Assembly (NCBI GenBank): GCA_965219535.1
Contig: CBDCNV010000002.1
Span: 1,440,001-1,472,000, forward strand
Direction: 5' to 3'
Source: Opitutales bacterium
GTDB lineage: Bacteria > Verrucomicrobiota > Verrucomicrobiia > Opitutales > PNEW01
Length of the DNA stretch: 32,000 nucleotides
The stretch's first letter is position 1, and every line of letters begins with the position of its first letter. The notes under the pieces were generated by a model. That model was not told where the DNA came from. It searched no databases and saw only the letters and a list, made by a program, of their open reading frames with translations. Below, one piece after another: positions 1,168 to 32,000 of the stretch. The position numbers and the translations under genes are program-made.

Positions 1168-1252
1168 GAGAGTGAACAGCCGTCGTCGCTTCGCTATGAC
1201 GTGCCAAGGTGAACAGTGAAAGAGCGCTTATGCGCGTGTTAAGTTTTAGGTG

Positions 1253-2648
1253 TTAAGTGTTAGGTTAGGGTCGGTACAACCAGGACATGGTTTACAGATT
1301 TAGATCAAGACATGGTTTACACTTTGTGAGGGATGCTGAACGGTAATCGGGTTATATAGTTAAGTTAATGTTATGCGGTTTTAGAGGTTTGGCTGGCATT
1401 GTTGGGGCCGCAAGCGGCCCCAATGAAAGCAGCCGTTGAAAGGTCAATCTGACCGATTCTGAGAGTGGCAAAGTAAACATCGAAGTGTACCGTGTCTAGT
1501 GGTTTTAGTCCAACGCTCCAACCGGCGAGGGCGGTGGAGATAGGAATCTGGAAGCCATCGAGTTTGATAGACCCGCTTTTTGAGACCCGGCGAGTCATCA
1601 AATCATAGCTGATATCGGCAGGAGTGCCACCGTAAGGATGAGAGCTGTGCTGATAGATTTCAGAGGGCGTGCTCATGGCAAGAGCCGCATGGGGGCGTTC
1701 TTCATTGAAGGTCTTGCGCCACAGATCGAAGGCCACCTGTTGGGTGCGAAGATCGTCCTGGGCATGTTTTTGCAACTCCTCTTTGATATCGCGATGGAGA
1801 CGCTCATGGGCACCGTTATCCTGGGGTTTACCCGGACGTCCACGCTCGAGATTGATCCCTAAGGCCAGCCACCAGGCCGCCAGTTTGCTCAGGCCCAGGA
1901 CCGCATTGGCACTGGCAAAGGGACTGCCGTTGTCGCTGCGGATGCAAGCGGGAAGTCCATAGCGTTCAAAGAGTTTTGTGAAGCATTCACGCACCGCTTC
2001 GCTACGGGCTGAACTGAGCACCCGCACCTCTAATACATAGCGGCTCCATTCATCCCGTACCGTCAAAGGTTCACAACGGTTGCCATCAACGGTGTGCCAC
2101 CACCCTTTGAAGTCTACGCTCCACACTTCGTTACAGCCACTGGCCTTGACGCTGCGGTAAAGGCGTCCGCTTTTTTGAGCGCTTCTGCGCCGACGCTTTT
2201 GCACCAGTCCCGCACGTTCCAAGACCCGTTTCACGCTCGAGTCTGAGGGGGCCTTCCCGTAACGCCTCTGGTAAAGCTCGCGGATCTTGTAGGGGCCCCA
2301 CGTCGGGTGATGATGCTTGAGTTTGATCAGCGTACATACTACTGATTCGGATAGTTCCTGAACACTTCCATGCGGTCGGCGTGAGCGCTCGTGCAACCCC
2401 TCCATCCCTTCGCTCAGGAAGCGCTTCTTCCATTTATACCCTGTCGGTCGGCTGATCCCGTAGTCTTCACACAGCTCGTTCATCTTTACTCCCGGTTGCA
2501 TCGATTCCAGGGCGAATTGGTATCTTTGGTCCATTTTATTTGTTTCCTTCCATGACATCATACCCCTTACTTAGCATCCTTCTTTCTTTGGCAATCTGTA
2601 AAGGATGTCCTGAACCTTTTGTGTAAAGAATGTCTTGAACCTATACCG
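1253..2648 (-). mobile_element. IS481-like insertion sequence, copy 1 (element proper probably 1272..2648)
   Basis: 1396-nt block identical by eye to 8513..9908 (offset 7260). Short terminal inverted repeat CGGTACA (1272) / TATACCG (2642-2648). Two subterminal ARGACATNNTTTACA boxes at each end. Single DDE transposase ORF. No target-site duplication discernible. Confidence 0.85.
1371..2561 (-). CDS. DDE transposase (HTH + rve/integrase-core), IS481-like
   Basis: 396-aa ORF. N-terminal HTH (ELCEDYGISRPTGYKWKKRF). DDE core WSVDFKG ... IRSDNGSPF ... NGAHERLHRDIK. Identical copy at 8631..9821. Confidence 0.85.
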   Translation of the reverse strand: MMSWKETNKMDQRYQFALESMQPGVKMNELCEDYGISRPTGYKWKKRFLSEGMEGLHERSRRPHGSVQELSESVVCTLIKLKHHHPTWGPYKIRELYQRRYGKAPSDSSVKRVLERAGLVQKRRRRSAQKSGRLYRSVKASGCNEVWSVDFKGWWHTVDGNRCEPLTVRDEWSRYVLEVRVLSSARSEAVRECFTKLFERYGLPACIRSDNGSPFASANAVLGLSKLAAWWLALGINLERGRPGKPQDNGAHERLHRDIKEELQKHAQDDLRTQQVAFDLWRKTFNEERPHAALAMSTPSEIYQHSSHPYGGTPADISYDLMTRRVSKSGSIKLDGFQIPISTALAGWSVGLKPLDTVHFDVYFATLRIGQIDLSTAAFIGAACGPNNASQTSKTA

Positions 2649-2695
2649 ATGTCGCTATCGGGTATCGGTATCGAAATCGAAATCGGTATTGGGTT

Positions 2696-3592: not shown

Positions 3593-3653
3593 AGAGGTTT
3601 ACCGTTCAAGGTTCACGGTTGAAAGAATGTTTTATCCTTTAGGATCAATCCGC

Positions 3654-3680
3654 TACCGAGGGCAAAGCCCGACATCTCCC
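3654..3680 (+). repeat. REP-like hairpin unit
   Basis: TACCGAGGGCAAAGCCCGACATCTCCC, preceded by the leader CCTTTAGGATCAATCCGC (3636-3653). Confidence 0.8.
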
Positions 3681-3808
3681 AATCGCAAATCACAAATTTC
3701 AAATAATATCCAAATTACAATTACTAAATAACCAAACTGTCTTTTCGTATATTGGTATTTCCATAATTGGAATTTATTTGTGATTTGGTATTTGATTTTT
3801 TGGTGCTT
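3680..3808 (+). repeat. ~125-bp AT-rich module, copy b
   Basis: Aligns with 2868-2990 and 20939-21061. Has a small insertion (CGCAAATCACAAAT) near its start and a short deletion in the middle. Confidence 0.8.
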
Positions 3809-5154: not shown

Positions 5155-5197
5155 AAAAGGTCAAAAGGTCAAAAAGTCAAAAGGTCAAAAAGTTGAC
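5155..5197 (+). repeat. (GGTCAAAA)n tandem array
   Basis: AAAAGGTCAAAAGGTCAAAAAGTCAAAAGGTCAAAAAGTTGAC. Reverse copies at 3834-3864 and 24907-24930. Short copies at 10171-10188 and 10221-10233. Confidence 0.9.
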
Positions 5198-5226
5198 GCC
5201 AAACACTGACGCGAGTGTTTTAATTC

Positions 5227-5266
5227 AGTCTAAAGTCAAAGGTCTAAGGTCGAAGGCGGGGAGGGG
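5227..5266 (+). repeat. AGTCTAAAGTCGAAGGTCGAAAGTCGAAAGCGGGG-type module
   Basis: One of seven copies: 5227-5266, 6844-6878, 9973-10008, 20848-20888, 30188-30220, 31467-31498, and reverse 17688-17715. Confidence 0.9.
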
Positions 5267-5332
5267 AAGTGAAAAATGAAAAGTGAACAGTGAGAGAGTT
5301 GCGTATAATATTTAACGGAGTTTATTATATTT

Positions 5333-6654: not shown

Positions 6655-6675
6655 GGGTCAAACGTAGAATTTAAA
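6655..6675 (-). promoter_or_regulatory. conserved 21-nt upstream motif (copy 2, reverse strand)
   Basis: Exact reverse complement of TTTAAATTCTACGTTTGACCC, 42 nt upstream of the start at 6612 and oriented with that minus-strand gene. Confidence 0.5.
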
Positions 6676-6713
6676 GAGCGCTGACATAGCGCTGACGCGC
6701 GTGTTAAGTGTTA

Positions 6714-6757
6714 GGTATCGGTATCGAAATCGGGATCGAGTATCGAAATCGAGTATC
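6714..6757 (+). repeat. ATCGNN hexamer array
   Basis: GGTATCGGTATCGAAATCGGGATCGAGTATCGAAATCGAGTATC. Other arrays at 2661-2689, 9906-9925, 10095-10141 and 15029-15072. Confidence 0.9.
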
Positions 6758-6921
6758 CCTTCGACTGCGCTCAGGGCAGGCGGGTGTCAGGATTTAGTAA
6801 ACAGTGAACAGTGAAAGAGCGCTGACGCGCGTGTTTTAAAATTAGTCTAAAGTCGAAGGTCAAAAGTCGAAAGCAGGGAAGAATCTAATACATAGCCTGA
6901 CTTCATTTGAGTTTCTTGACA

Positions 6922-8444: not shown

Positions 8445-8512
8445 CCAACACAGATGAAGGGGAGAAGCGCTGACATAGCGCTGACGCATCAGCGCGTGTT
8501 AAGTGTTAGGTT

Positions 8513-9908
8513 TTAAGTGTTAGGTTAGGGTCGGTACAACCAGGACATGGTTTACAGATTTAGATCAAGACATGGTTTACACTTTGTGAGGGATGCTGAA
8601 CGGTAATCGGGTTATATAGTTAAGTTAATGTTATGCGGTTTTAGAGGTTTGGCTGGCATTGTTGGGGCCGCAAGCGGCCCCAATGAAAGCAGCCGTTGAA
8701 AGGTCAATCTGACCGATTCTGAGAGTGGCAAAGTAAACATCGAAGTGTACCGTGTCTAGTGGTTTTAGTCCAACGCTCCAACCGGCGAGGGCGGTGGAGA
8801 TAGGAATCTGGAAGCCATCGAGTTTGATAGACCCGCTTTTTGAGACCCGGCGAGTCATCAAATCATAGCTGATATCGGCAGGAGTGCCACCGTAAGGATG
8901 AGAGCTGTGCTGATAGATTTCAGAGGGCGTGCTCATGGCAAGAGCCGCATGGGGGCGTTCTTCATTGAAGGTCTTGCGCCACAGATCGAAGGCCACCTGT
9001 TGGGTGCGAAGATCGTCCTGGGCATGTTTTTGCAACTCCTCTTTGATATCGCGATGGAGACGCTCATGGGCACCGTTATCCTGGGGTTTACCCGGACGTC
9101 CACGCTCGAGATTGATCCCTAAGGCCAGCCACCAGGCCGCCAGTTTGCTCAGGCCCAGGACCGCATTGGCACTGGCAAAGGGACTGCCGTTGTCGCTGCG
9201 GATGCAAGCGGGAAGTCCATAGCGTTCAAAGAGTTTTGTGAAGCATTCACGCACCGCTTCGCTACGGGCTGAACTGAGCACCCGCACCTCTAATACATAG
9301 CGGCTCCATTCATCCCGTACCGTCAAAGGTTCACAACGGTTGCCATCAACGGTGTGCCACCACCCTTTGAAGTCTACGCTCCACACTTCGTTACAGCCAC
9401 TGGCCTTGACGCTGCGGTAAAGGCGTCCGCTTTTTTGAGCGCTTCTGCGCCGACGCTTTTGCACCAGTCCCGCACGTTCCAAGACCCGTTTCACGCTCGA
9501 GTCTGAGGGGGCCTTCCCGTAACGCCTCTGGTAAAGCTCGCGGATCTTGTAGGGGCCCCACGTCGGGTGATGATGCTTGAGTTTGATCAGCGTACATACT
9601 ACTGATTCGGATAGTTCCTGAACACTTCCATGCGGTCGGCGTGAGCGCTCGTGCAACCCCTCCATCCCTTCGCTCAGGAAGCGCTTCTTCCATTTATACC
9701 CTGTCGGTCGGCTGATCCCGTAGTCTTCACACAGCTCGTTCATCTTTACTCCCGGTTGCATCGATTCCAGGGCGAATTGGTATCTTTGGTCCATTTTATT
9801 TGTTTCCTTCCATGACATCATACCCCTTACTTAGCATCCTTCTTTCTTTGGCAATCTGTAAAGGATGTCCTGAACCTTTTGTGTAAAGAATGTCTTGAAC
9901 CTATACCG
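8513..9908 (-). mobile_element. IS481-like insertion sequence, copy 2 (element proper probably 8532..9908)
   Basis: Identical by eye to 1253..2648. Same orientation. Confidence 0.85.
8631..9821 (-). CDS. DDE transposase (HTH + rve), IS481-like
   Basis: 396-aa product identical to that of 1371..2561. Confidence 0.85.
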   Translation of the reverse strand: MMSWKETNKMDQRYQFALESMQPGVKMNELCEDYGISRPTGYKWKKRFLSEGMEGLHERSRRPHGSVQELSESVVCTLIKLKHHHPTWGPYKIRELYQRRYGKAPSDSSVKRVLERAGLVQKRRRRSAQKSGRLYRSVKASGCNEVWSVDFKGWWHTVDGNRCEPLTVRDEWSRYVLEVRVLSSARSEAVRECFTKLFERYGLPACIRSDNGSPFASANAVLGLSKLAAWWLALGINLERGRPGKPQDNGAHERLHRDIKEELQKHAQDDLRTQQVAFDLWRKTFNEERPHAALAMSTPSEIYQHSSHPYGGTPADISYDLMTRRVSKSGSIKLDGFQIPISTALAGWSVGLKPLDTVHFDVYFATLRIGQIDLSTAAFIGAACGPNNASQTSKTA

Positions 9909-9972
9909 GTATCGAAATCGGGATCCCTTCGACTGCGCTCAGCGCTCAGCGCTGGCGCGCGTGTTTTAAAAA

Positions 9973-10008
9973 AGTCTAAAGTCGAAGGTCGAAAGTCGAA
10001 AGCGGGGG
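9973..10008 (+). repeat. AGTCTAAAGTCGAAGGTCGAAAGTCGAAAGCGGGGG module
   Basis: See 5227-5266. Preceded by the GC core AGCGCTCAGCGCTGGCGCGCGTGTT (9941-9965). Confidence 0.9.
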
Positions 10009-10018
10009 AAGAATTCAG

Positions 10019-10060
10019 TGAACAGTGAACAGTGAACAGTGAACGGTGAACAGTGAAAGA
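10019..10060 (+). repeat. (GTGAACA)n heptamer array, about 6 units
   Basis: GTGAACAGTGAACAGTGAACAGTGAACGGTGAACAGTGAAAG. Shorter runs at 1209-1220, 5281-5293, 6797-6817 and 17613-17620. Confidence 0.9.
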
Positions 10061-10094
10061 GCACTGATACGCGTGTTAAGTTTTAAGTATTAGA

Positions 10095-10141
10095 TATCGG
10101 AATCGAAATCGGAATCGGGATCGGTATCGAAATCGGGATCC
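10095..10141 (+). repeat. ATCGNN hexamer array
   Basis: ATATCGGAATCGAAATCGGAATCGGGATCGGTATCGAAATCGGGATC, followed by CCTTCGACTGCGCTCAGCGCTGACGCGCG. Confidence 0.9.
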
Positions 10142-10188
10142 CTTCGACTGCGCTCAGCGCTGACGCGCGTCAAAAGGTCAAAAAGTCA

Positions 10189-10218
10189 CCAGCCGTCGCC
10201 AAGGCTATGGCCGGCAAG
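10189..10218 (+). repeat. 30-mer CCAGCCGTCGCCAAGGCTATGGCCGGCAAG
   Basis: Exact second copy at 31591-31620. Reverse or degenerate copies at 30550-30583, 17740-17761, 31925-31947 and 1177-1208. Confidence 0.9.
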
Positions 10219-13782: not shown

Positions 13783-14604
13783 ATGGCAATTGATCAACAA
13801 CAGAGAAAACAATTCGACGAACTGGGTTATCTCATTGTAGAACGACTGATCTCGGGAAACGATCTGCTTGAGCTTGACCGGATGATCGATTGTCTGCTCG
13901 ACGGTGAGCTTAAACCAGTGACAGATTACAAAGGTTGGTTACCCGATCAATTCTATACATTTTGGGAACCGGAAATGAAAGAACGAACGGATCTACCGCG
14001 ACGCGATCGTGTTCGACTCATGTCCTACATGTACCATCACCACCCCTATTTCAGGGCTATTGGCAGCCACCCCGCGATATACGAGGTGATTTCATTGCTT
14101 TACCAAACAGGGGTTCAGATATTTTGCGATACCCTGTTTAATAAGCCGGCTCACCACGGTATCAAAGCTGCGTTGCACCAGGATACTACCTTTTGGGGTA
14201 AGATCGAACCCAATGCCATGAACTTCTGGATGGCCATCGACCCCGCGACCGTTGAAAACGGATGCCTCCACATCATACCTGCAAGCCACAAGAAAGATCT
14301 ACCCCACCATGATCATCCGATCCAGGGACATATTCTCAACGACGACGAAGTGGACCTCAGTATACAGATCCCAATTGAGCTTGAGCCCGGGAACGCTATC
14401 TTTTTTGACAGCGGGTTGATCCACCGAAGCTATCCCAATCGGAGCGATCGCAGGCGCCGCGCCTATGCCGCTATCTACGGCACGGAAAATCAGCGACACA
14501 TCGAACCGTGGAAAACAACGAGCATTGCTGAGAAATCCCCGAACTACCAGTTCGAGTTGATCGCTCCCCATCAGCGCAGCGTAGCCGGCGAGGGAAAATT
14601 TTAA
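13783..14604 (+). CDS. phytanoyl-CoA dioxygenase (PhyH) family protein
   Basis: FDELGYLIVERL at the N-terminus, ALHQDTTFW (HxD), NGCLHIIPASH, and GLIHRSYPNRS (distal His). ATG 13783 is preferred over TTG 13777. Confidence 0.8.
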   Translation: MAIDQQQRKQFDELGYLIVERLISGNDLLELDRMIDCLLDGELKPVTDYKGWLPDQFYTFWEPEMKERTDLPRRDRVRLMSYMYHHHPYFRAIGSHPAIYEVISLLYQTGVQIFCDTLFNKPAHHGIKAALHQDTTFWGKIEPNAMNFWMAIDPATVENGCLHIIPASHKKDLPHHDHPIQGHILNDDEVDLSIQIPIELEPGNAIFFDSGLIHRSYPNRSDRRRRAYAAIYGTENQRHIEPWKTTSIAEKSPNYQFELIAPHQRSVAGEGKF

Positions 14605-14982: not shown

Positions 14983-15233
14983 AGCGCTGACGCATCAGCG
15001 CGTGTTAAGTTTTATGTGTTAGGTGTTAGGTATCGAGTATCGGTATCGGGATCGGGTATCGGTATCGAAATCTTCCAATCCGCAATCTGAAATCCGATAT
15101 CCACAATTGATATGACCCCTTTTAACTTTCCCTTACTCGTATTTTTGCATCTATGCTTAACTTGCCTTGGGGTGCACCTCGGTGGTCGAGAGTTCGGGTA
15201 CGATATTGAATAAGGGTAAGCCATTGCGGAAAT

Positions 15234-15448
15234 CTTGAGTTTGATCAGCGTACATACTACTGATTCGGATAGTTCCTGAACACTTCCATGCGGTCGGCGT
15301 GAGCGCTCGTGCAACCCCTCCATCCCTTCGCTCAGGAAGCGCTTCTTCCATTTATACCCTGTCGGTCGGCTGATCCCGTAGTCTTCACACAGCTCGTTCA
15401 TCTTTATGCATCGATTCCAGGGCGAATTGGTATCTTTGGTCCATTTTA
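15234..15448 (-). mobile_element. internal fragment of the IS481-like transposase gene
   Basis: Matches 2316-2538 of the intact IS (transposase codons ~10-82) with an 8-nt deletion (CTCCCGGT, 2489-2496). Neither IS terminus is present. Confidence 0.85.
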
Positions 15449-15621
15449 CCCCGTAGTTTGTCGCGATACAGGCGATGTGCGGGGTTATAATAACGTTATC
15501 CAGATCCCATAGAGGATTGTTCAGATTTTTGAGAAAAATATCGCACATTCGCACCCCGTAGTTTGTCGCGATACAGGCGATGTGCGGGGTTATAATAACG
15601 TTATCCAGATCCCATAGAGGA
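15448..15621. repeat. 69-nt direct duplication (15448-15516 and 15553-15621) separated by 36 nt
   Basis: ACCCCGTAGTTTGTCGCGATACAGGCGATGTGCGGGGTTATAATAACGTTATCCAGATCCCATAGAGGA occurs twice. It encodes PLWDLDNVIITPHIACIATNYGV twice on the minus strand. Confidence 0.9.
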
Positions 15622-16537
15622 CTATCCGGCGGTAATGGTTCTTCACGAAAAACGTCTAAACCTGCACCTGCGAGATGACCATTTTTCAAGGCCTCGATTA
15701 ATTCCGGTTCTACTATCACCGTACCACGCGAAGAATTGTAGAGATAGGCGCCCGGTTTCATCGCATCGAGGAACCGCTTGTCGACAAGGTCTCTGGTTGT
15801 AGGTCCTCCGGTGACTGCCAGGACGACGTGATCCGCTTCGGCGAGAGCGCCGTAAAGCTCGTCGGTCGTATACAGTTTTTCGACCCAATCGGGTTTTTTT
15901 ATATCCTCGATGTCAACCGCGATTACACGCATCTGAAGACCGGAACACACCCGCGCGATTTGGGATCCGGTACTGCCGATACCTACGACACAGACAGTCG
16001 ATCCATTTAATTCTCCGCAGAAAAATTCCTCGCCGTTCAAGATAGTTCGGTTGAATTGCCGATTCTGTTTTCCCTGCATATGCAGTAAAATTCTTCGGCT
16101 GAAAAAGAGCATCATCGAGAGCGTATTTTCCGCAATGCCGATGGATGCTGCGCCCTTGATGTTGCACAGGGTAAAGTTGGGACGCGACTCAAATCCGTGA
16201 CCGAGGTAACCATCAAATCCCGCGCTGCCGAGTTGCAGTACACGCACGGGGGTTCCTTCCAACCAATCTGCTTTAGGATTGCCAACGACAAAATCCGCAC
16301 CCTCAAGGTGACTGCGATATTCTGCTTCAGGGATTTTGGGATCAATAACTTTCAACTCGGACCAGCCGGAGGCGGCATCTCTGAGTTGACTTAACAGTGC
16401 TTCCTTTAAAAACGGAATTGCGTAGAGAATTTGTGAGGACATAAATTAATATAGAACGGCAATTGATTTACTATCAAAATAAATTATTACATTTGATAAA
16501 AATTTTTCTCTTACGTTAGACCTCTTTTGATTTTCCT

Positions 16538-17599
16538 TTATTCGTTATCTACTCGCGTTTTCAAATTGATCGCTTTACCCAGACGAGAGGATTCCATACC
16601 TCCTAACATGATTTCCGTCACATGGCGAGCGGCCTGCGCATTGGAAAGTGGCGGTTGGGTCCCCGCTCGAATGTGATCGGCAAAATGCTGGTGCATGTTA
16701 CCCGGATTGGTATCTTCACAGTCCACCGGCTGAACGTCAACTGGCGCGTTTTCCCTGGTATAGGATGTCGGTGTATGTAGACTGACATCGGCTCCATTTC
16801 GCCCCGATAGTGTGAACTTTCCAGCTGTTCCGTGGATACTACCTTCTCCAGTACGGGCAGGATCACACCAACTGGTTTCCGCCGTAATGATGGCTCCAGA
16901 CTCGGTTTGCAAAACGAGGGTAGCGACATCCTCCAAATCTGTGGGTTTGTCAAATGTTGTAACGAAGCCAGTAACTTTGGCAAACGATCCTAAAATGGCC
17001 ACCAAAAGGGAGATCGGATAAACCCCCATGTCAAATAGTGCACCGCCACCGGCACGTTTAGCGTCAAAGAACCACAGGTCATCATCGGTTTCGCCGAAGA
17101 GATCGCGAACCTCAGCATAGTAAATCTCTGGGCCACCGTGGCTGGTTCTATAGCGTGCACCTGATACTCTACCGATTGCGCCTTCTGTAATCATCTGGCG
17201 AATTTTGTAAACCTGACTGCTAAAATGAGGTAGACACATCACCGTTTGCTTACTCTTTTCAACAGCTTCCACGAAAGCGTTTGCCTCGTTCATGTCACCA
17301 CACAGCGGCTTTTGCATCAACACATGCTTGCCAGTTTCAATAGCCTTAATTCCCCAGGAAACATGGTGAGGGTGAGGTGTTCCTATTACAATAGCATCGA
17401 CAGAGTCGTCAGAGATAACCGCCTCATAATCCTGCGTCCAATTGGGAATCCCAAATACTTCACACTGTTGTTTCAGCCGTGACTCTTTACGGCCACTAAT
17501 CAGAACTACTTCGAAGTTATCGTTTTGGTTCAGATCGGGCAGATGCAAGCGACGGACGATACCGCCCGCGCCAATCACACCTACTTTAATTTTACTCAT
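16538..17599 (-). CDS. Gfo/Idh/MocA family oxidoreductase
   Basis: N-terminal Rossmann motif KVGVIGAGGI, VDAIVIGTPHPHH, KHVLMQKPL. GGAAGGA RBS upstream. Confidence 0.85.
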   Translation of the reverse strand: MSKIKVGVIGAGGIVRRLHLPDLNQNDNFEVVLISGRKESRLKQQCEVFGIPNWTQDYEAVISDDSVDAIVIGTPHPHHVSWGIKAIETGKHVLMQKPLCGDMNEANAFVEAVEKSKQTVMCLPHFSSQVYKIRQMITEGAIGRVSGARYRTSHGGPEIYYAEVRDLFGETDDDLWFFDAKRAGGGALFDMGVYPISLLVAILGSFAKVTGFVTTFDKPTDLEDVATLVLQTESGAIITAETSWCDPARTGEGSIHGTAGKFTLSGRNGADVSLHTPTSYTRENAPVDVQPVDCEDTNPGNMHQHFADHIRAGTQPPLSNAQAARHVTEIMLGGMESSRLGKAINLKTRVDNE

Positions 17600-20816: not shown

Positions 20817-20847
20817 GCTTTAGGCGCATCAGCGCGTGTTTTAATTT

Positions 20848-20888
20848 AGTCTAAAGTCGAAGGTCGAAAGTCGAAGGCGGGGGAGGGG
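20848..20888 (+). repeat. AGTCTAAAGTCGAAGGTCGAAAGTCGAAGGCGGGGGAGGGG module
   Basis: See 5227-5266. Preceded by GCGCATCAGCGCGTGTT (20824-20840), which starts 8 nt after the SBP stop. Confidence 0.9.
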
Positions 20889-20912
20889 TCAAGTCGAGAA
20901 ATTACAAAACGC

Positions 20913-20939
20913 TACCGAGGGTAAAGCCCGACATCTCCC
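20913..20939 (+). repeat. REP-like hairpin unit
   Basis: TACCGAGGGTAAAGCCCGACATCTCCC. Confidence 0.8.
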
Positions 20940-21061
20940 AATTACAAATAATTTCCAAATTACAATTACCTAATAACCAAACTGTCTATTCATTTATTTC
21001 ATAAATTGGAATTTCCATCATTGGAATTTATTTGTTATTTGGTAATTGATATTTGTTGCTT
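20939..21061 (+). repeat. ~125-bp AT-rich module, copy c
   Basis: Aligns with 2868-2990 and 3680-3808. Confidence 0.85.
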
Positions 21062-21114
21062 GGTCAGTTTTCAGGAAAAAACTGTTACCGCCGTTAGGAT
21101 AAATCCACAATCGG

Positions 21115-21139
21115 TACCGAGGGCGTAGCACGACATCCC
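21115..21139 (+). repeat. REP-like hairpin unit
   Basis: TACCGAGGGCGTAGCACGACATCCC, preceded by the leader GCCGTTAGGATAAATCCAC (21090-21108). Confidence 0.75.
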
Positions 21140-21232
21140 TCAATCGAAAATCCGCAATTGATAAGGCCCCTATTGACTTTCCCCGCTTAACACTTAAAAC
21201 TTAACACGTAACACGAGCGAAGACGTATCGCG

Positions 21233-26352: not shown

Positions 26353-27339
26353 ATGGCAGATCCGGTATATGATGATAAAAATCGCCGTTGGGATATCTTC
26401 CGATTAGTTGCGCCGTGGTTCGGTCGTACAGTAACTTCTAGGTTTCTTCAAAATACATCTGAATATATTCCAGGAGTAGAGCGTATTCATCACTTAATCA
26501 GAGGGAGCTACAAACCAGCTTGGACAGATTTTCCTTTAGCAATCCAGATTACGCATAGTGGGCAGTACGAAGATAAAATAAGTTATGCCAAAGATGGTAT
26601 GTGGAGAGTCTATTATAGTCCAGAAGCTGGTCCATTAGATGACTGGCAAAACGCATCACTATTTAAACTCATTCAATATGGAGAACCGGTAATTGTGACA
26701 AATCGCATATCGGACAAAACAGACCATAGGGGGGCTAGACATCATATTATGGGGTTAGGTCTTTTTCAAAGTTTCGATGAAAATCTGCATTCTTTTTTGG
26801 TTCAAGGTGCTGGTTTTGATATGCTTCAGCAGGTTATTGGATCTACAATCAATGATGAACTTTTAGATACAGCATTGCGATTAGAAGCACTCGAAGCTTG
26901 GGTTCCTTTTATAGAAGAAGGTAAGTCCATCTATAAATTATCTGCTGAAAAAAGAGATAACGCCTTTAGAGGTGTTATATTAGATAACTATTGTAATACC
27001 TGTGCTGTAACAGGACAGCGATTCCATTTTGGAGATAACATTGAAGCAGAAGCTGCCCATATTATTAGTAAATATAAACGGGGGACTGATGATCCACGTA
27101 ACGGAATTGCATTATCACGCTCTGTTCATTGGGCATTTGATAAAGGTATTTTTACAATCTCAGACCAATATGAAATCGTGATACACCCTCGTTCGTGTGA
27201 AGCTAATTATCAACAATTCTCTTTAATGAATTTAGATCGTAAACGATTAACTTTACCTGAAGATGATTATTATTTTCCTCATCCTGAAGCTCTAAAATGG
27301 CATCGCGATAATAAATTCGGTGAGTTTTTAATAAGTTGA
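26353..27339 (+). CDS. candidate modification-dependent (type IV-like) nuclease: SRA/PUA-like N-terminal region + HNH_2-type C-terminal nuclease
   Basis: C-terminus: CNTCAVTGQRF...IEAEAAHIISKY...DPRNGIALSRSVHWAFDKGIFTI (HNH_2-type pattern). N-terminus: GSYKP...LAIQITHSGQYEDK...WRVYYSPEAG...NASL...EPVIVTNR, which parallels the SRA/YDG motif order. Confidence 0.6.
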   Translation: MADPVYDDKNRRWDIFRLVAPWFGRTVTSRFLQNTSEYIPGVERIHHLIRGSYKPAWTDFPLAIQITHSGQYEDKISYAKDGMWRVYYSPEAGPLDDWQNASLFKLIQYGEPVIVTNRISDKTDHRGARHHIMGLGLFQSFDENLHSFLVQGAGFDMLQQVIGSTINDELLDTALRLEALEAWVPFIEEGKSIYKLSAEKRDNAFRGVILDNYCNTCAVTGQRFHFGDNIEAEAAHIISKYKRGTDDPRNGIALSRSVHWAFDKGIFTISDQYEIVIHPRSCEANYQQFSLMNLDRKRLTLPEDDYYFPHPEALKWHRDNKFGEFLIS

Positions 27340-27516
27340 GATTGGTAATGAATAAAACATTCTGAATTGCTGTGACGCTGAGCTTCTCAAATGACTGTGT
27401 GAAAAGAGCGACGTCAATAGATTCTGTCAGCGACTAGTCAGGTTAAGTCTGAAATCCTGGGCGAAATATAAACACCTGATTACCGAACGTGGCTTTTACA
27501 GTGTATAATTAATAGT

Positions 27517-28251
27517 GGGTCATGCCTAGAACAGAGGGTATCTTAAGCACATATTAAGGATGTTACGATGGAGGTTTTGATGACGATGGTTAAAGCGATA
27601 TTCAGTTTCTTTGAGGTGCAGTTGGAAGGTCCTACGAGAAAGACCTTTGAACTTAGCCAATCGAAGTTTAGCAAAAGCCCAAAAAGATTCAATCCCGTTA
27701 ATGTGGGAGTGTCCCTGGGCAAACTCGTTGTCGTTGTGATTGACACGGTAATGCTTCTTATAGCCCAGATCCACGAGGCCGTTGTAAGCACGCCACCCGT
27801 CAGAATAAAGCACACTGTCAAAAGTAACTCTCCCTTGGATCACCGCATGCAGAGCGGCTCTGGAGACGTTGCGTACAACCTGGGTATAGACTTTCCCATT
27901 ACGCTTGAGCAACCCGAAGACGGGCACTTTCTTGAATGCACCCCGACCTCTTTGCCCTGGAATTCTTTTGCCTCCAAAGTAGGACTCATCCATTTCCACC
28001 GACCCCCTAAAAGGCGAGGCCTGCGCACATTGCTGCAACAAACGCTCCCGCAACAAGCGCAAATAACGGTTGACCGTGTTACGATTCAATCCTGTCAATT
28101 GGGCTATCTTCAACGCTTCCATATCCAAGCTAAAACACTTTACTAACTGCCGAAATTTGGCCTCAGAAATTTTTGAACGATGTACATACTTATTTCTCAT
28201 TTGTCTAGAATAGCTTACACATCTGATATGTGTCTATTCTAGGCATGACCC
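27517..28251 (-). mobile_element. IS1595-family insertion sequence (735 bp)
   Basis: Perfect 15-bp TIRs GGGTCATGCCTAGAA (27517-27531) / TTCTAGGCATGACCC (28237-28251). 8-bp direct target duplication TTAATAGT (27509-27516 and 28252-28259). Confidence 0.9.
27526..28200 (-). CDS. IS1595-family (ISXO2-like DDE) transposase
   Basis: 224 aa: VEMDESYFGGKR...GRGA..KVPVFGL, YSDGWRAYNGL, YRVNHNDNEF...HINGIESFWAFAK, ETEYRFNHR. Confidence 0.9.
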   Translation of the reverse strand: MRNKYVHRSKISEAKFRQLVKCFSLDMEALKIAQLTGLNRNTVNRYLRLLRERLLQQCAQASPFRGSVEMDESYFGGKRIPGQRGRGAFKKVPVFGLLKRNGKVYTQVVRNVSRAALHAVIQGRVTFDSVLYSDGWRAYNGLVDLGYKKHYRVNHNDNEFAQGHSHINGIESFWAFAKLRLAKFKGLSRRTFQLHLKETEYRFNHRHQNLHRNILNMCLRYPLF

Positions 28252-28276
28252 TTAATAGTTAATAAATTAAAGTAAT

Positions 28277-29173
28277 ATGAAAAATAACAAAATCGTCAAA
28301 TCACTCCTGCAGGATCTTAATTCATATGTATATTCTAGATCAATGACATCATTAAAAAAGGGGAGATACTTAAGTGCATGTATACGTTCATCTTTTGTTA
28401 AGACATATGAATTTATTGATTTAGCGTTTCGTAAGTTGTCGCAAGAACATGCTTTTTTTCTTGTCACGAATCTTCGAGGAATTACAGAGGATCTTATTTA
28501 TTTACGATTTATGACTACGCTAAATCTCAATGATAGAGATAATATGATTGAAGGGCTCATGGTCCTTGAAGTTTTTAATAACATATCTCATCAAAATAAA
28601 TTTTTTTGCAAATTTAGACCATTTCAACCTGTCCTTAACAATGTTCCATCTAATAATCTTATCGATAAAACGAGGCTAAAGATCCAAAAAATATGGCGAC
28701 AGAACGGCTGGCCAAATTTACAATCAAATTATACTTCTCCTCCTACTCGACAAATTGCTGAACGGACCGACCCTAATTATATGGAGATTATCTATGATTA
28801 CATATTCCGGCTCACTTCAGATACTGTACATTTTAAACCTGGAATATTACTAAGATCTGGTTGGGGGCCATCCAAAAGCATGACTAAATTCACAACCTCT
28901 AACATGTCGCGCTATTATTTCGCATTTTCTAGAATATATGGAATCTTTCTTTTCACACTGTATTTTGAATTTTTTCCAAGATTTCTTAAACCGGGCGATC
29001 GGATTCAAGGCAAAGTAGAGCAGCTGCGTGAATTAATTTTGCGAGAACAACGTTGGCCGGAAATGGTAACTTTTGAGGAAATGAATCAAGCTGTTCCTAA
29101 GAAAAACATTATTCAATTTTTAATACAATCAATCTATACTTTAGAATACAAATCGGGATTTTTTAATAAGTAA
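28277..29173 (+). CDS. hypothetical protein (298 aa), AT-rich islet
   Basis: Uninterrupted ORF in ~25-35 % GC DNA, where random ORFs of this length are unlikely. The ATG lies 25 nt after the IS1595 right end. No confident motif. Confidence 0.5.
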   Translation: MKNNKIVKSLLQDLNSYVYSRSMTSLKKGRYLSACIRSSFVKTYEFIDLAFRKLSQEHAFFLVTNLRGITEDLIYLRFMTTLNLNDRDNMIEGLMVLEVFNNISHQNKFFCKFRPFQPVLNNVPSNNLIDKTRLKIQKIWRQNGWPNLQSNYTSPPTRQIAERTDPNYMEIIYDYIFRLTSDTVHFKPGILLRSGWGPSKSMTKFTTSNMSRYYFAFSRIYGIFLFTLYFEFFPRFLKPGDRIQGKVEQLRELILREQRWPEMVTFEEMNQAVPKKNIIQFLIQSIYTLEYKSGFFNK

Positions 29174-30167: not shown

Positions 30168-30311
30168 GGCGCGATAGCGACTGCGCGCGTCTAAAGTCGA
30201 AGGTCCAAAGTCGAAAGCCGAAGAAGAGGGATAGCCACAAAAGGCACAAAAGGCGCAAAGAAGAGTTTTGAACCGCGGATATCGCAGATATGCGCGGATG
30301 TTGATTTAGAT

Positions 30312-30480
30312 CAGGTGAAACACGGTTCTTGATCTCAATGTCATCCCTCCTGCATTTGCAGGATGGATTGACTACGGCTATTCCCTAGCGCTTTTTTAAA
30401 ATGTAATTTTAAAAAACGCGTAGGAAAAATCCGACACTCAGCTAGCTGAGTTATTGCGATCATGCACCGAGTTTCACCTG
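30312..30480 (+). repeat. 169-bp multi-hairpin palindromic element, copy 1 (MITE-like or structured RNA candidate)
   Basis: 28-nt termini CAGGTGAAACACGGTTCTTGATCTCAAT / ATTGCGATCATGCACCGAGTTTCACCTG are inverted repeats with 4 mismatches. Three internal hairpins. Same length and architecture as 31721-31889. Confidence 0.85.
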
Positions 30481-30733
30481 AGCTTTCTCCCCGTTCTTCC
30501 CGAACTTCCTGTAAAAAATCTCTTTTCTTTTTATGTGTCTCTTGTGCCTCTTGCCTGCCGGCCATAGCCTTGGCGACGGCTGGTGGCCAACAATCTTAAC
30601 TTTTTTTTTATCGGCGTTCATCCGCGTTATCAGCGATTAATTCTTTTCGTTCTTCCTGTGTTTCCTGTTAAAGTTTTTTATTTTTGTTTTTTATCTTTCT
30701 CTAATATCCTTCGCTAATTAGTTTAGAGATCAG

Positions 30734-31480
30734 ATGAATCAGATCGAATTACCTCAAAGTGAAAAATTTCATTTATTTCTCCTTGCTGGCCAGTCAAACA
30801 TGGCGGGCAGGGGCTTGCTTGAGGAAGAGGATACTAATCCTCACCCGCGGGTCCTGACAATAACGAGAGATGGAGATTGGGTTCCGGCAGTGGATCCTAT
30901 CCACTTCGATAAGCCGAATAAGGGAGTTTGCCTTGGCAGAACATTCGGCATTGAGGTTGCAGAACAGGATCCGGATATCGTGGTCGGCCTCATCCCCGCT
31001 GCCTGTGGCGGCTCTCCCATTTCTACCTGGCAGCCCGGTATGTATTTTAAGGCGACGGAAAGTCACCCCTACGACGACGCCATCCAAAGAACGAAAAGAG
31101 CGATGGAGGATGGCGAGTTAAAAGCCATTCTCTGGCATCAGGGAGAGACCGATGCACGGGAGCCAGATCTCTCCACAATTTATGAAAAAAAACTGCGCCG
31201 ATTAATTGTGCGATTCAGAGACGACCTCAACAGCCCGAATCTGCCCTTCATCATCGGTCAAATGGGCCAATTTCTGGGTAGCGAGTTTGATCGCGACGGA
31301 CTCGTCAATGAAGCCCACGTTAAGATAGCAAAAGAAGATGACAACTCCACCTTCGTCCCCTCCGATGGTCTGGGCTGCCTAAGCGACAACGTCCATTTCG
31401 ACGCCAAAGCATTACGCGAGTTCGGACATCGGTACGCGGAGGTGTATTTGCGTATACGCAAATACGTGTCTAAAGTCTAA
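30734..31480 (+). CDS. sialate O-acetylesterase-like (SASA/DUF303) SGNH-type esterase
   Basis: FHLFLLAGQSNMAGRG nucleophile motif, ACGGSPISTW, ILWHQGETD, NVHFD. The final codons and the stop lie within the GTCTAAAGTCTAAGGTCC repeat module. Confidence 0.75.
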   Translation: MNQIELPQSEKFHLFLLAGQSNMAGRGLLEEEDTNPHPRVLTITRDGDWVPAVDPIHFDKPNKGVCLGRTFGIEVAEQDPDIVVGLIPAACGGSPISTWQPGMYFKATESHPYDDAIQRTKRAMEDGELKAILWHQGETDAREPDLSTIYEKKLRRLIVRFRDDLNSPNLPFIIGQMGQFLGSEFDRDGLVNEAHVKIAKEDDNSTFVPSDGLGCLSDNVHFDAKALREFGHRYAEVYLRIRKYVSKV

Positions 31481-31590
31481 GGTCCAAAGTCGAAAGCGAA
31501 GAGCGCTCTCGCGCGGGGAGAAAGAGGGAATAGCCACAGCATTAAATGAAGATTTATGAATGATGAATGCAGAATGGAGAGGGATAGCCA

Positions 31591-31620
31591 CCAGCCGTCG
31601 CCAAGGCTATGGCCGGCAAG
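31591..31620 (+). repeat. 30-mer CCAGCCGTCGCCAAGGCTATGGCCGGCAAG (exact second copy)
   Basis: Identical to 10189-10218. Confidence 0.9.
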
Positions 31621-31720
31621 CAAGAGGCACAGAAGGTACAAGAGGGATAAGAATAAATTTAACCACGAATGAACACGAATCGACACGAATAAAAGAGAGA
31701 AGAAATAGTAGTAACAAAGT

Positions 31721-31889
31721 CAGGTGAAACACGGTGCTTGATCTCAATTACATCTCACCCGTATCTACGGGAGCGATGTTACGGCTATTCCCTAGCGCTT
31801 TTTTAAAATGTAATTTTAAAAAAGCGCGTAGGAAACATCCGACACTCAGCTGTGCTGAGTTATTGCGATCAAGCACCGTGTTTCACCTG
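31721..31889 (+). repeat. 169-bp multi-hairpin palindromic element, copy 2
   Basis: Termini CAGGTGAAACACGGTGCTTGATCTCAAT / ATTGCGATCAAGCACCGTGTTTCACCTG pair at 27 of 28 positions. Internal hairpins CCCGTA-TC-TACGGG, GCGCTTTTTTAAAAT-GTA-ATTTTAAAAAAGCGC and CTCAGC-TGT-GCTGAG. Confidence 0.85.
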
Positions 31890-32000
31890 AGCTTAGTCCT
31901 ATTTCATTTATTTTTTGCCTAGCAGCCATAGCATTGGTGACGGTTGGTGTCCTACAACCTTAATTATTCATTTTATCGGCGTTCATTCGCGCTATCCGCG

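Follow-up and report, generated by a model that had tools for sequence, protein, structure and literature searches.

Introduction

Interspersed palindromic repeats are known mainly from Proteobacteria, and their spread and function are still debated. Correia elements of Neisseria and RUP elements of Streptococcus pneumoniae are bacterial miniature inverted-repeat transposable elements (MITEs) of 100-200 bp with terminal inverted repeats of approximately 26-30 bp; they are non-coding and intergenic, occur in either orientation, and vary in presence between strains. ERIC (or IRU) and BIME sequences of enterobacteria are imperfect palindromes, similar in size to the element reported here and independent of orientation, and BIMEs are intergenic mosaics of small repeated modules. 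Repetitive extragenic palindromes (REPs) are recognized as short palindromes with a GTAG/CGTC tag; RAYT and TIRYT genes have been linked to REP and terminal-inverted-repeat (TIR) families, and Opitutus terrae is rich in REPs (PMC3733652). REPINs are hairpin-forming doublets that lack target-site duplications (TSDs) and in which compensatory changes are common (PMC3116915). We analyzed a 32,000-nt stretch of DNA from an Opitutales bacterium (contig CBDCNV010000002.1, positions 1,440,001 to 1,472,000), referred to as the window, and describe E, the name used for a 171-nt palindromic element that is present in it twice, on either side of an esterase gene.

E is a real, previously undescribed family of bacterial interspersed palindromic repeat, and literature searches found no published element of this kind from Opitutales or Verrucomicrobia. 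The strongest points are its conservation above that of coding DNA, a covarying junction fold without an RNA signature, a rule of composition in the flanking arms, and a lineage-specific gene inversion. An earlier note on the window had offered a choice between a MITE-like mobile element and a structured RNA or DNA element. A multi-copy, structured palindromic element is what we found; structured RNA is disfavored, and an ordinary MITE fails on TSDs. Our preferred reading, held tentatively and at a little under an even chance, is that E is a REPIN/MITE-like, TSD-less, structured DNA repeat of marine Opitutales, non-coding and non-autonomous.

Two copies of E in the window

The copies occupy window positions 30311-30481 (copy 1; profile score 183.1 bits) and 31720-31890 (copy 2; 189.3 bits), both on the forward strand and both 171 nt long. 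The equal length and shared orientation reported before were present, with the boundaries redrawn one base wider on each side. The two are 86% identical over the aligned element, and their longest identical run is 44 nt. Each ends in 29-nt inverted repeats (TCAGGTGAAACACGGTGCTTGATCTCAAT and its complement), previously drawn as 28 nt, which close a junction with three hairpins. In copy 2 the closing stem (31720-31748 with 31862-31890) pairs at 28 of 29 positions, with 1 mismatch; in copy 1 (30311-30339 with 30453-30481) it pairs at 25 of 29, with 4 mismatches. A 24-nt arm pattern allowing up to 3 mismatches matched the four arms only (0.00 matches expected from 100 shuffles).

Between the termini lie 113 nt that form a conserved three-hairpin junction with an invariant A/T palindrome. 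The three hairpins per copy are those that had been described. Hairpin 1 (30340-30372 in copy 1; 31750-31779 in copy 2) is G+C-rich. Hairpin 2 (30381-30426; 31791-31832) is the long A/T palindrome, clamped by GCGC, with the form TTTTTTAAAAT-loop-ATTTTAAAAAA. Hairpin 3 (30436-30451; 31844-31860) has the stem CTCAGC/GCTGAG. A short junction stem is formed by 30375-30377 with 30431-30433 in copy 1 and by 31782-31784 with 31839-31841 in copy 2. The inner stem of hairpin 1 had been called completely different in the two copies; however, CCTGCA/TGCAGG and CCCGTA/TACGGG differ at only two stem positions, each of which is compensated, and the intermediates CCCGCA and CCCGCG occur in other E copies.

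The predicted folds were very stable. Folded as RNA, copy 1 reached -75.4 kcal/mol (z -9.6) and copy 2 reached -93.9 kcal/mol (z -13.2). Folded as DNA, copy 2 reached -62.3 (z -14.3). The opposite strand of E folded better still, at -103.7 kcal/mol.

An assembly artifact, which the earlier note had raised as a possible refutation, is unlikely because the same arrangement is found on contigs of two different samples. These are L005 and L006, metagenome contigs from ENA that match the window and extend past its end. Over 11,267 bases, a single base distinguishes the window from L005. L005 and L006 are 99.8% identical, with 9 gap openings and 0 mismatches, and no difference between them in the positions of E copies was seen.

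Distribution of the E family

A gapped terminus pattern was searched against one genome per species (185,579 species) and gave four matches, all in a single genome, a complete 4.49-Mb metagenome-assembled genome (MAG) labeled 'Opitutales bacterium' (OY829953.1). A looser pattern returned six stretches from JGI metagenomes; two marine contigs carried real E copies, and four of the six stretches were chance matches without similarity to E. Orthologues of the esterase (73-89% identity) led to the contigs L014, L015, L016, and L020, which held ten further copies. The family then comprised 29 distinct, aligned copies (19 and then 10 more, all from profile hidden Markov model and covariance model searches) in seven related marine Opitutales genomes or contigs, namely the window genome (L005/L006), the MAG, a JGI marine metagenome, and the four esterase-orthologue contigs.

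Two more copies lie 1.2 and 2.6 kb past the window end (L005 13074-13246 and 14506-14678), so that 4 copies stand within 5.1 kb; a profile search found no E copy in the first 30 kb of the window. The neighborhood in which copies cluster is shared by every genome and has genes for an HpcH aldolase, the SASA esterase, two epimerases, PhyH, and an SBP/permease. Copies that stand alone adjoin housekeeping genes (the glutamyl/glutaminyl-tRNA synthetase family and a pseudouridine synthase). All copies are intergenic, 140-250 nt from the ends of open reading frames (ORFs). Plasmid, phage, and viral collections, viral contigs included, contained no E copy. The whole window gave no match to Rfam 15 at gathering thresholds, and permissive filters returned only noise (12.5-18.7 bits, E-values 2.2-8.6).

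Damaged or rearranged copies were also seen, at L003 7195-7390, L004 5573-5733 and 7581-7747, and L009 5025-5183. Copy L003c has a 24-nt insertion within its 3' arm, L004d and L004e have deletions in the 5' arm, and L009b is a symmetric chimera with a stem of the hairpin-3 type on both sides. L020, the most divergent genome, holds a distant E-like family (16677-16837 and 14009-14179) with termini (AGGTGGAACGCGCTGCCTG...) unlike those of E and a higher G+C content (0.53-0.55). Its members have the same CCCTAGCGC central hairpin motif and contain a module like module M, which is described with the flanking arms below.

Turnover at orthologous sites and the flanking arms

The site between the esterase and epimerase genes was occupied differently from genome to genome. 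The copy there belonged to cluster 8 in the window and to cluster 11 in the MAG, both times in (+) orientation, and to cluster 1 in L008 and cluster 5 in L016, both times in (-) orientation; L014 and L015 had no E. Other orthologous intergenic sites were likewise filled or empty by genome. No direct repeat of any length was found in the 30-nt flanks of 19 of 19 copies; the T...A that adjoins CAGGTG/CACCTG is part of the E inverted repeat. At orthologous intergenic sites, E comes and goes, is replaced, and changes orientation, and it does so without TSD.

The copies did not group by genomic position. In four genomes, cluster-8 copies from unrelated sites were 91-98% identical to one another; L004d and L008b, for instance, were 98% identical and came from different genomes and different sites. 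Neighboring coding DNA was 82.7-86.5% identical between the window genome and the MAG, so cluster-8 E is more conserved across genomes than the coding DNA beside it. This indicates a sequence that is either held by selection or re-copied from conserved masters.

The DNA around E followed a rule of its own. On the genomic top strand, the purine fraction of the 120 nt to the left of E was 0.55-0.76 and that of the 120 nt to the right was 0.24-0.42, at all 19 copies scored and independently of the orientation of E itself. E-free intergenic regions of the window showed no such rule. The arms are built of short motif arrays and their complements (GGCACAAAAG/CTTGTGCC, CGCGGATA/TATCCGCG, and TTTTACAGGAAG/CTTCCTGTAAAA). 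Left and right arms were complementary in pieces of 25-45 nt, beyond all shuffles in approximately two thirds of the copies and at varying distances; E therefore stands at the center of a larger, loosely palindromic intergenic unit. At the esterase-epimerase site of L015, the purine and pyrimidine arms are present without E between them.

For copy 1, the left arm (30168-30310) has a purine fraction of 0.67 in 120 nt and carries arrays of GTCTAAAGTCGAAGGTC, GCCACAAAAGGCACAAAAGG, and CGCGGATATCGCAGATATGCGCGGATG; the right arm (30482-30733; purine fraction 0.33) carries complements of left-arm motifs (CTTGTGCCTCTTGCC and CATCCGCGTTATC) and module M. For copy 2, the left arm (31481-31719) has a purine fraction of 0.72, and the right arm (31891-32000) is pyrimidine-rich, includes a third M core, and continues past the window end. 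The inverted pair previously said to enclose copy 1 (30268-30300 and 30611-30640) is weak and was not reported by the repeat search; it is one instance of the general mirror organization of purine-left and pyrimidine-right flanks. The modules that had been noticed in the same order downstream of both copies are there, but they belong to separately repeated families found elsewhere in these genomes.

A stronger, 63-nt inverted pair that the earlier note lacked also brackets the esterase gene (30534-30596 on the forward strand and 31578-31640 on the reverse, 86% complementary). It consists of module M and adjoining motifs. The core of M is a small bulged hairpin (GCCATAGCCTTGGCGACGGCTGGTG), found in the window at 30561-30585, 31589-31613, 31925-31949, and 10187-10211. 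M is present or absent as a clean 31-nt indel in otherwise alignable arms (L004 and L008), and it looks like a separate REP-like insertion module.

The main alternative to a mobile repeat, possible if on balance unlikely, is a DNA element that is maintained by the host, has no transposition of its own, and spreads by homologous recombination or gene conversion through the shared purine and pyrimidine arms. Its role could be that of a cruciform-prone or protein-binding site separating transcription units. The lack of TSDs, the clustering of copies (4 in 5.1 kb and 0 in the preceding 30 kb of the window), the E-less arms of L015, and the conservation above coding DNA are all in keeping with such an element. 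So is the high conservation of unpaired positions of E, and so is the similarity between copies, which often runs well past E into the arms (approximately 120 nt to the left and 150 nt to the right among L004b, L004d, and L008b; approximately 70 nt and 200 nt between two MAG copies). However, local conversion alone is insufficient for copies that are 91-98% identical at non-orthologous sites of different genomes, the same site carries different subfamilies by genome, and no binding protein or function was indicated by any analysis.

Covariation and the level at which the fold is kept

Across 19 copies, standard pairs filled 93.0% of 1225 cells, as compared to 32-43% when partners were slid by 1-3 columns. 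Both sides had changed at 21 of 66 pairs; shuffles gave 10.9 +/- 1.9, and 0 of 500 reached 21. Compensated pairs occurred in all six helices of E, termini included (GAAACACGG/CCGTGTTTC versus GACTCGCGG/CCGCGAGTC). The covariation that the earlier note had proposed to test is there in all helices, and the hairpin structure is kept through compensatory change. The two strands of E can fold equally well.

An RNA under selection tolerates G-U pairs but not A-C mismatches. Among 1874 cells from the 29 copies, G-U numbered 21 and A-C 18. Since G-U is as rare as A-C, only Watson-Crick pairing has been kept, as expected for DNA. Copies stood in either orientation, between tandem, convergent, and divergent genes, and promoter- and terminator-like matches in the region were at chance level, with none inside E. 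With no signal from strand, G-U pairs, or promoters, and with both orientations in use, the fold looks like a DNA-level feature rather than a strand-specific RNA.

We therefore consider it distinctly unlikely that E functions as a structured RNA, whether within neighboring mRNAs or as a small RNA, with effects on stability, processing, or insulation such as have been proposed for ERIC and REP sequences. The very stable predicted fold (z -9.6 to -14.9) and the strong covariation in every helix would suit such an RNA, and co-transcription is plausible for an element that always lies between genes, 140-250 nt from their ends. A functional structured RNA would, however, have G-U far above A-C and a fixed orientation to a promoter or gene. 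E has neither, as it lies in both orientations to both neighbors, convergent and divergent pairs included. Promoter and terminator matches did not exceed chance, and Rfam gave no match beyond noise even at E-values below 10.

The esterase gene and its inversion

The gene between the two copies (30734-31480, forward strand) encodes a SASA-family carbohydrate acetylesterase (PF03629, E-value 1.4e-62). In the window the order is HpcH (+), E, esterase (+), E, epimerases (+). In 6 of 6 relatives (the MAG, L008, L014, L015, L016, and L020), HpcH and the epimerases are on one strand and the esterase is on the other, and the window orientation is therefore derived. This derived orientation is backed by the contigs from two samples. 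Two sets of repeats bound the inverted segment, namely the two E copies and the 63-nt inverted pair with M. Inferring the breakpoints from the most-alike copies was considered and rejected; members of the abundant cluster-8 subfamily are 91-98% identical wherever they occur, and a close match is therefore no sign of orthology.

The earlier note had seen the esterase gene as a cassette that could be excised or amplified. A link between E and rearrangement survives in that the orientation of the bracketed gene differs, but neither excision nor amplification was seen. The gene is retained in all seven related genomes, with or without E beside it; E comes and goes at its sites and the esterase gene stays. 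Further along, L008 lacks the PhyH-E-transporter block that adjoins the third copy.

The last codons and stop of the esterase gene lie within a repeated module (GTCTAAAGTC...; 31465-31497, compared to 30186-30218) that is also found downstream of other genes. The C-terminus of the esterase (YVSKV*) is partly repeat-encoded.

Proposed mechanism and its difficulties

E is dynamic, and its fold looks like a property of the DNA; the enzyme and the mode of insertion are suggested by analogy with REPINs, by the abundance of REPs in Opitutus terrae as an order-level precedent, and by the association of RAYT/TIRYT genes with REP and TIR repeats. The fold would act as folded single-stranded DNA or as a cruciform and would be recognized by an enzyme that acts in trans, is specific for both sequence and structure, and has its gene elsewhere in the genome. 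In line with what has been proposed for REPs, the most likely candidate is a RAYT/TIRYT-type HUH/Y1 enzyme present in single copy. Such an enzyme may copy E into the center of palindromic intergenic arms, so that E would be moved in trans, probably as folded single-stranded DNA. Each copy has the same 29 nt in both orientations, and two flanking copies would thus offer inverted as well as direct homology. It was probably through this inverted homology that the esterase segment of the window lineage turned around, and the gene inversion would then be a by-product.

A more specific proposal, which we rate as rather unlikely, is that E is the substrate of a structure-specific DNA enzyme that recognizes the four-way-junction fold and inserts E without duplication at the apex of palindromic intergenic arms. 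If true, E would represent a new class of TSD-less mobile element in the PVC superphylum and an active remodeling of gene orientation in a polysaccharide-utilization neighborhood.

Several points weigh against the REPIN/MITE-like reading. No partner enzyme was found in the approximately 190 kb sampled, which held only IS481- and IS1595-type transposases and an IS3-type helix-turn-helix fragment. The annotated neighbor genes of E included no Y1 transposase, although no genome-wide RAYT/TIRYT search was made. No clean empty site could be aligned at the HAD-PhyH site, upstream of HAD, or at the esterase-epimerase site. Intergenic DNA of different species is unalignable outside the repeated modules, so no exact insertion boundary can be read, and the exact ends of E as a mobile unit are accordingly not proven. 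Between some copies, similarity extends 100-200 nt past E into the arms, a pattern that copying by homologous recombination explains no less well than transposition does. Hairpin-templated repair can produce compensatory changes in DNA palindromes even when no selection acts. The arms of E are not short REP hairpins with a GTAG/CGTC tag, so E is not a textbook REP doublet. Finally, recombination around the esterase could equally well have used the 63-nt inverted pair with M, and the breakpoints are not placed.

It appears improbable that E is an ordinary MITE, which would have arisen by deletion from a DDE insertion sequence sharing its 29-nt ends and would be moved in trans by the transposase of that sequence. 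Long terminal inverted repeats, small size, no coding capacity, multiple copies in either orientation, and variable occupancy are all as expected of one, as are the variant termini that covary at both ends. However, none of the 19 copies examined had a flanking direct repeat, and the internal hairpins are conserved and covarying, which DDE transposition does not require. The approximately 190 kb sampled held no longer element or insertion sequence with the termini of E. Both resident insertion sequences were rejected as partners: the 19-nt ends of the window IS1595 (GGGTCATGCCTAGAACAGA) are unrelated to the E termini, and the IS481 copies have no match to the E arms.

A folded site for a site-specific recombinase, attC-like or of the invertase type, through which genes are shuffled as cassettes is highly improbable. 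In its favor, a run of similar palindromic sites does separate genes singly or in pairs, one of the bracketed genes has been inverted, L008 lacks a PhyH-E-transporter block, and the fold is symmetric at the DNA level. Against it, gene order is otherwise conserved while E occupancy varies (E moves and genes do not), the attC core sites RYYYAAC/GTTRRRY are absent and the ends read GTGAAAC/GTTTCAC, E is 171 nt long and stands 140-250 nt away from ORF ends, a single array contains both orientations, the annotated neighbors include no integrase or invertase, and copies also adjoin housekeeping genes. For each of three readings, those of a structured RNA, an ordinary DDE MITE, and a recombinase site, at least one tested feature speaks to the contrary.

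Other repeats and mobile elements nearby

Almost every intergenic region in window positions 1-30000 is a mosaic of short repeated modules (for example 2801-2878, 3646-3690, 5197-5298, 6673-6881, 9943-10161, and 20818-21151). The modules include a hairpin, TACCGAGGGCAAAGCCCGACATC (8 copies), a sequence found just after stop codons, GTCTAAAGTCGAAGGTCGAAAGTCGAAAGC (6 copies), and arrays of GTGAACAGTGAAC, GGTATCGGTATCGAAATCGG, and GTGTTAAGTGTTAGGT. Orthologous intergenic regions of the relatives carry different module sets; one example is a tandem array of approximately 20 CCTGAAC units upstream of the HAD gene (approximately L005 18450-18600).

Two full copies of an IS481-family element with a 396-aa transposase are present in the window (1215-2649 and 8492-9908) and are approximately 93% identical to a copy in the MAG (L004 3907-5340). 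In a third, partial copy (15234-15448), the N-terminal part is in one ORF with a 2-hydroxyacid dehydrogenase (15012-16442), and a perfect 69-nt direct duplication (15448-15516 and 15553-15621, 105 nt apart) lies at the junction with this partial copy. A variable block (26353-29173) immediately upstream of the E cluster contains an HNH_2 endonuclease gene, the IS1595 element (ISXO2-like; 19-nt inverted ends at 27517-27535 and 28233-28251), and a DUF5677 gene. The corresponding flank of L016 carries a SEFIR/TIR_2-domain gene and other small ORFs instead.

The esterase-bearing short-read contigs L007, L017, L018, and L019 are only 1.05-2.1 kb long. L017 breaks off within E, with an incomplete copy as its first 137 nt, and in L019 an E copy follows 22 nt after the contig start. 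Such contigs suggest that E repeats fragment short-read assemblies of these genomes.

Significance and comparison with known systems

The E family is an unusually clear case of an interspersed palindromic repeat, with a complex covarying DNA fold, conservation above that of neighboring genes across species, visible gain, loss, and flipping at the same sites, and a link to a gene inversion. Its hosts are uncultured marine Opitutales with complete long-read genomes and raw reads, and both the requirements for fold versus sequence and the search for a mobilizing enzyme are directly testable in it. Elements of this type can also mislead gene-order comparisons in these genomes.

Chromosomal attC arrays, such as the VCRs of Vibrio, resemble E in being arrays of similar, structure-conserved palindromic sites between single genes and in that attC sites function as folded single-stranded DNA. 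However, the core-site consensus, length of approximately 57-141 nt, fixed orientation, ORF adjacency, and neighboring integrase of attC are all absent for E. ERIC and BIME sequences share with E the imperfect palindrome, similar size, and orientation-independent occurrence. They have no sequence relationship to E, and ERIC is generally viewed as acting in transcripts, whereas E has no strand signal of the RNA type. To our knowledge, the purine-left/pyrimidine-right arm rule is not a described feature of BIMEs.

Correia and RUP elements are like E in size, inverted-repeat length, non-coding and intergenic nature, occurrence in both orientations, and variable presence, and E has the terminal inverted repeats of a MITE (29-nt arms) on a short, non-coding unit in 29 copies. 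In contrast to E, for which neither a duplication nor a matching insertion sequence was found, Correia and RUP elements generate TA duplications, and DDE transposases are either their source or what they rely on.

REPINs differ from E in three respects. The ends of E are plain 29-nt inverted repeats (TCAGGTGAAACACGGTGCTTGATCTCAAT, not self-complementary and without a terminal GTAG/CGTC), whereas REP units are short hairpins with that tag. The interior of E is a conserved three-hairpin junction and not a loose spacer, and E apparently exists in tens of clustered copies, whereas REPINs are dispersed in hundreds. Like REPINs, E is extragenic and TSD-less and forms a long hairpin from two inverted ends, here through a closing stem of 28 pairs. 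It further shares with them the frequent compensatory changes, a conserved 'master' sequence across related genomes, and the families and subfamilies within a genome (PMC3116915, PMC3733652).

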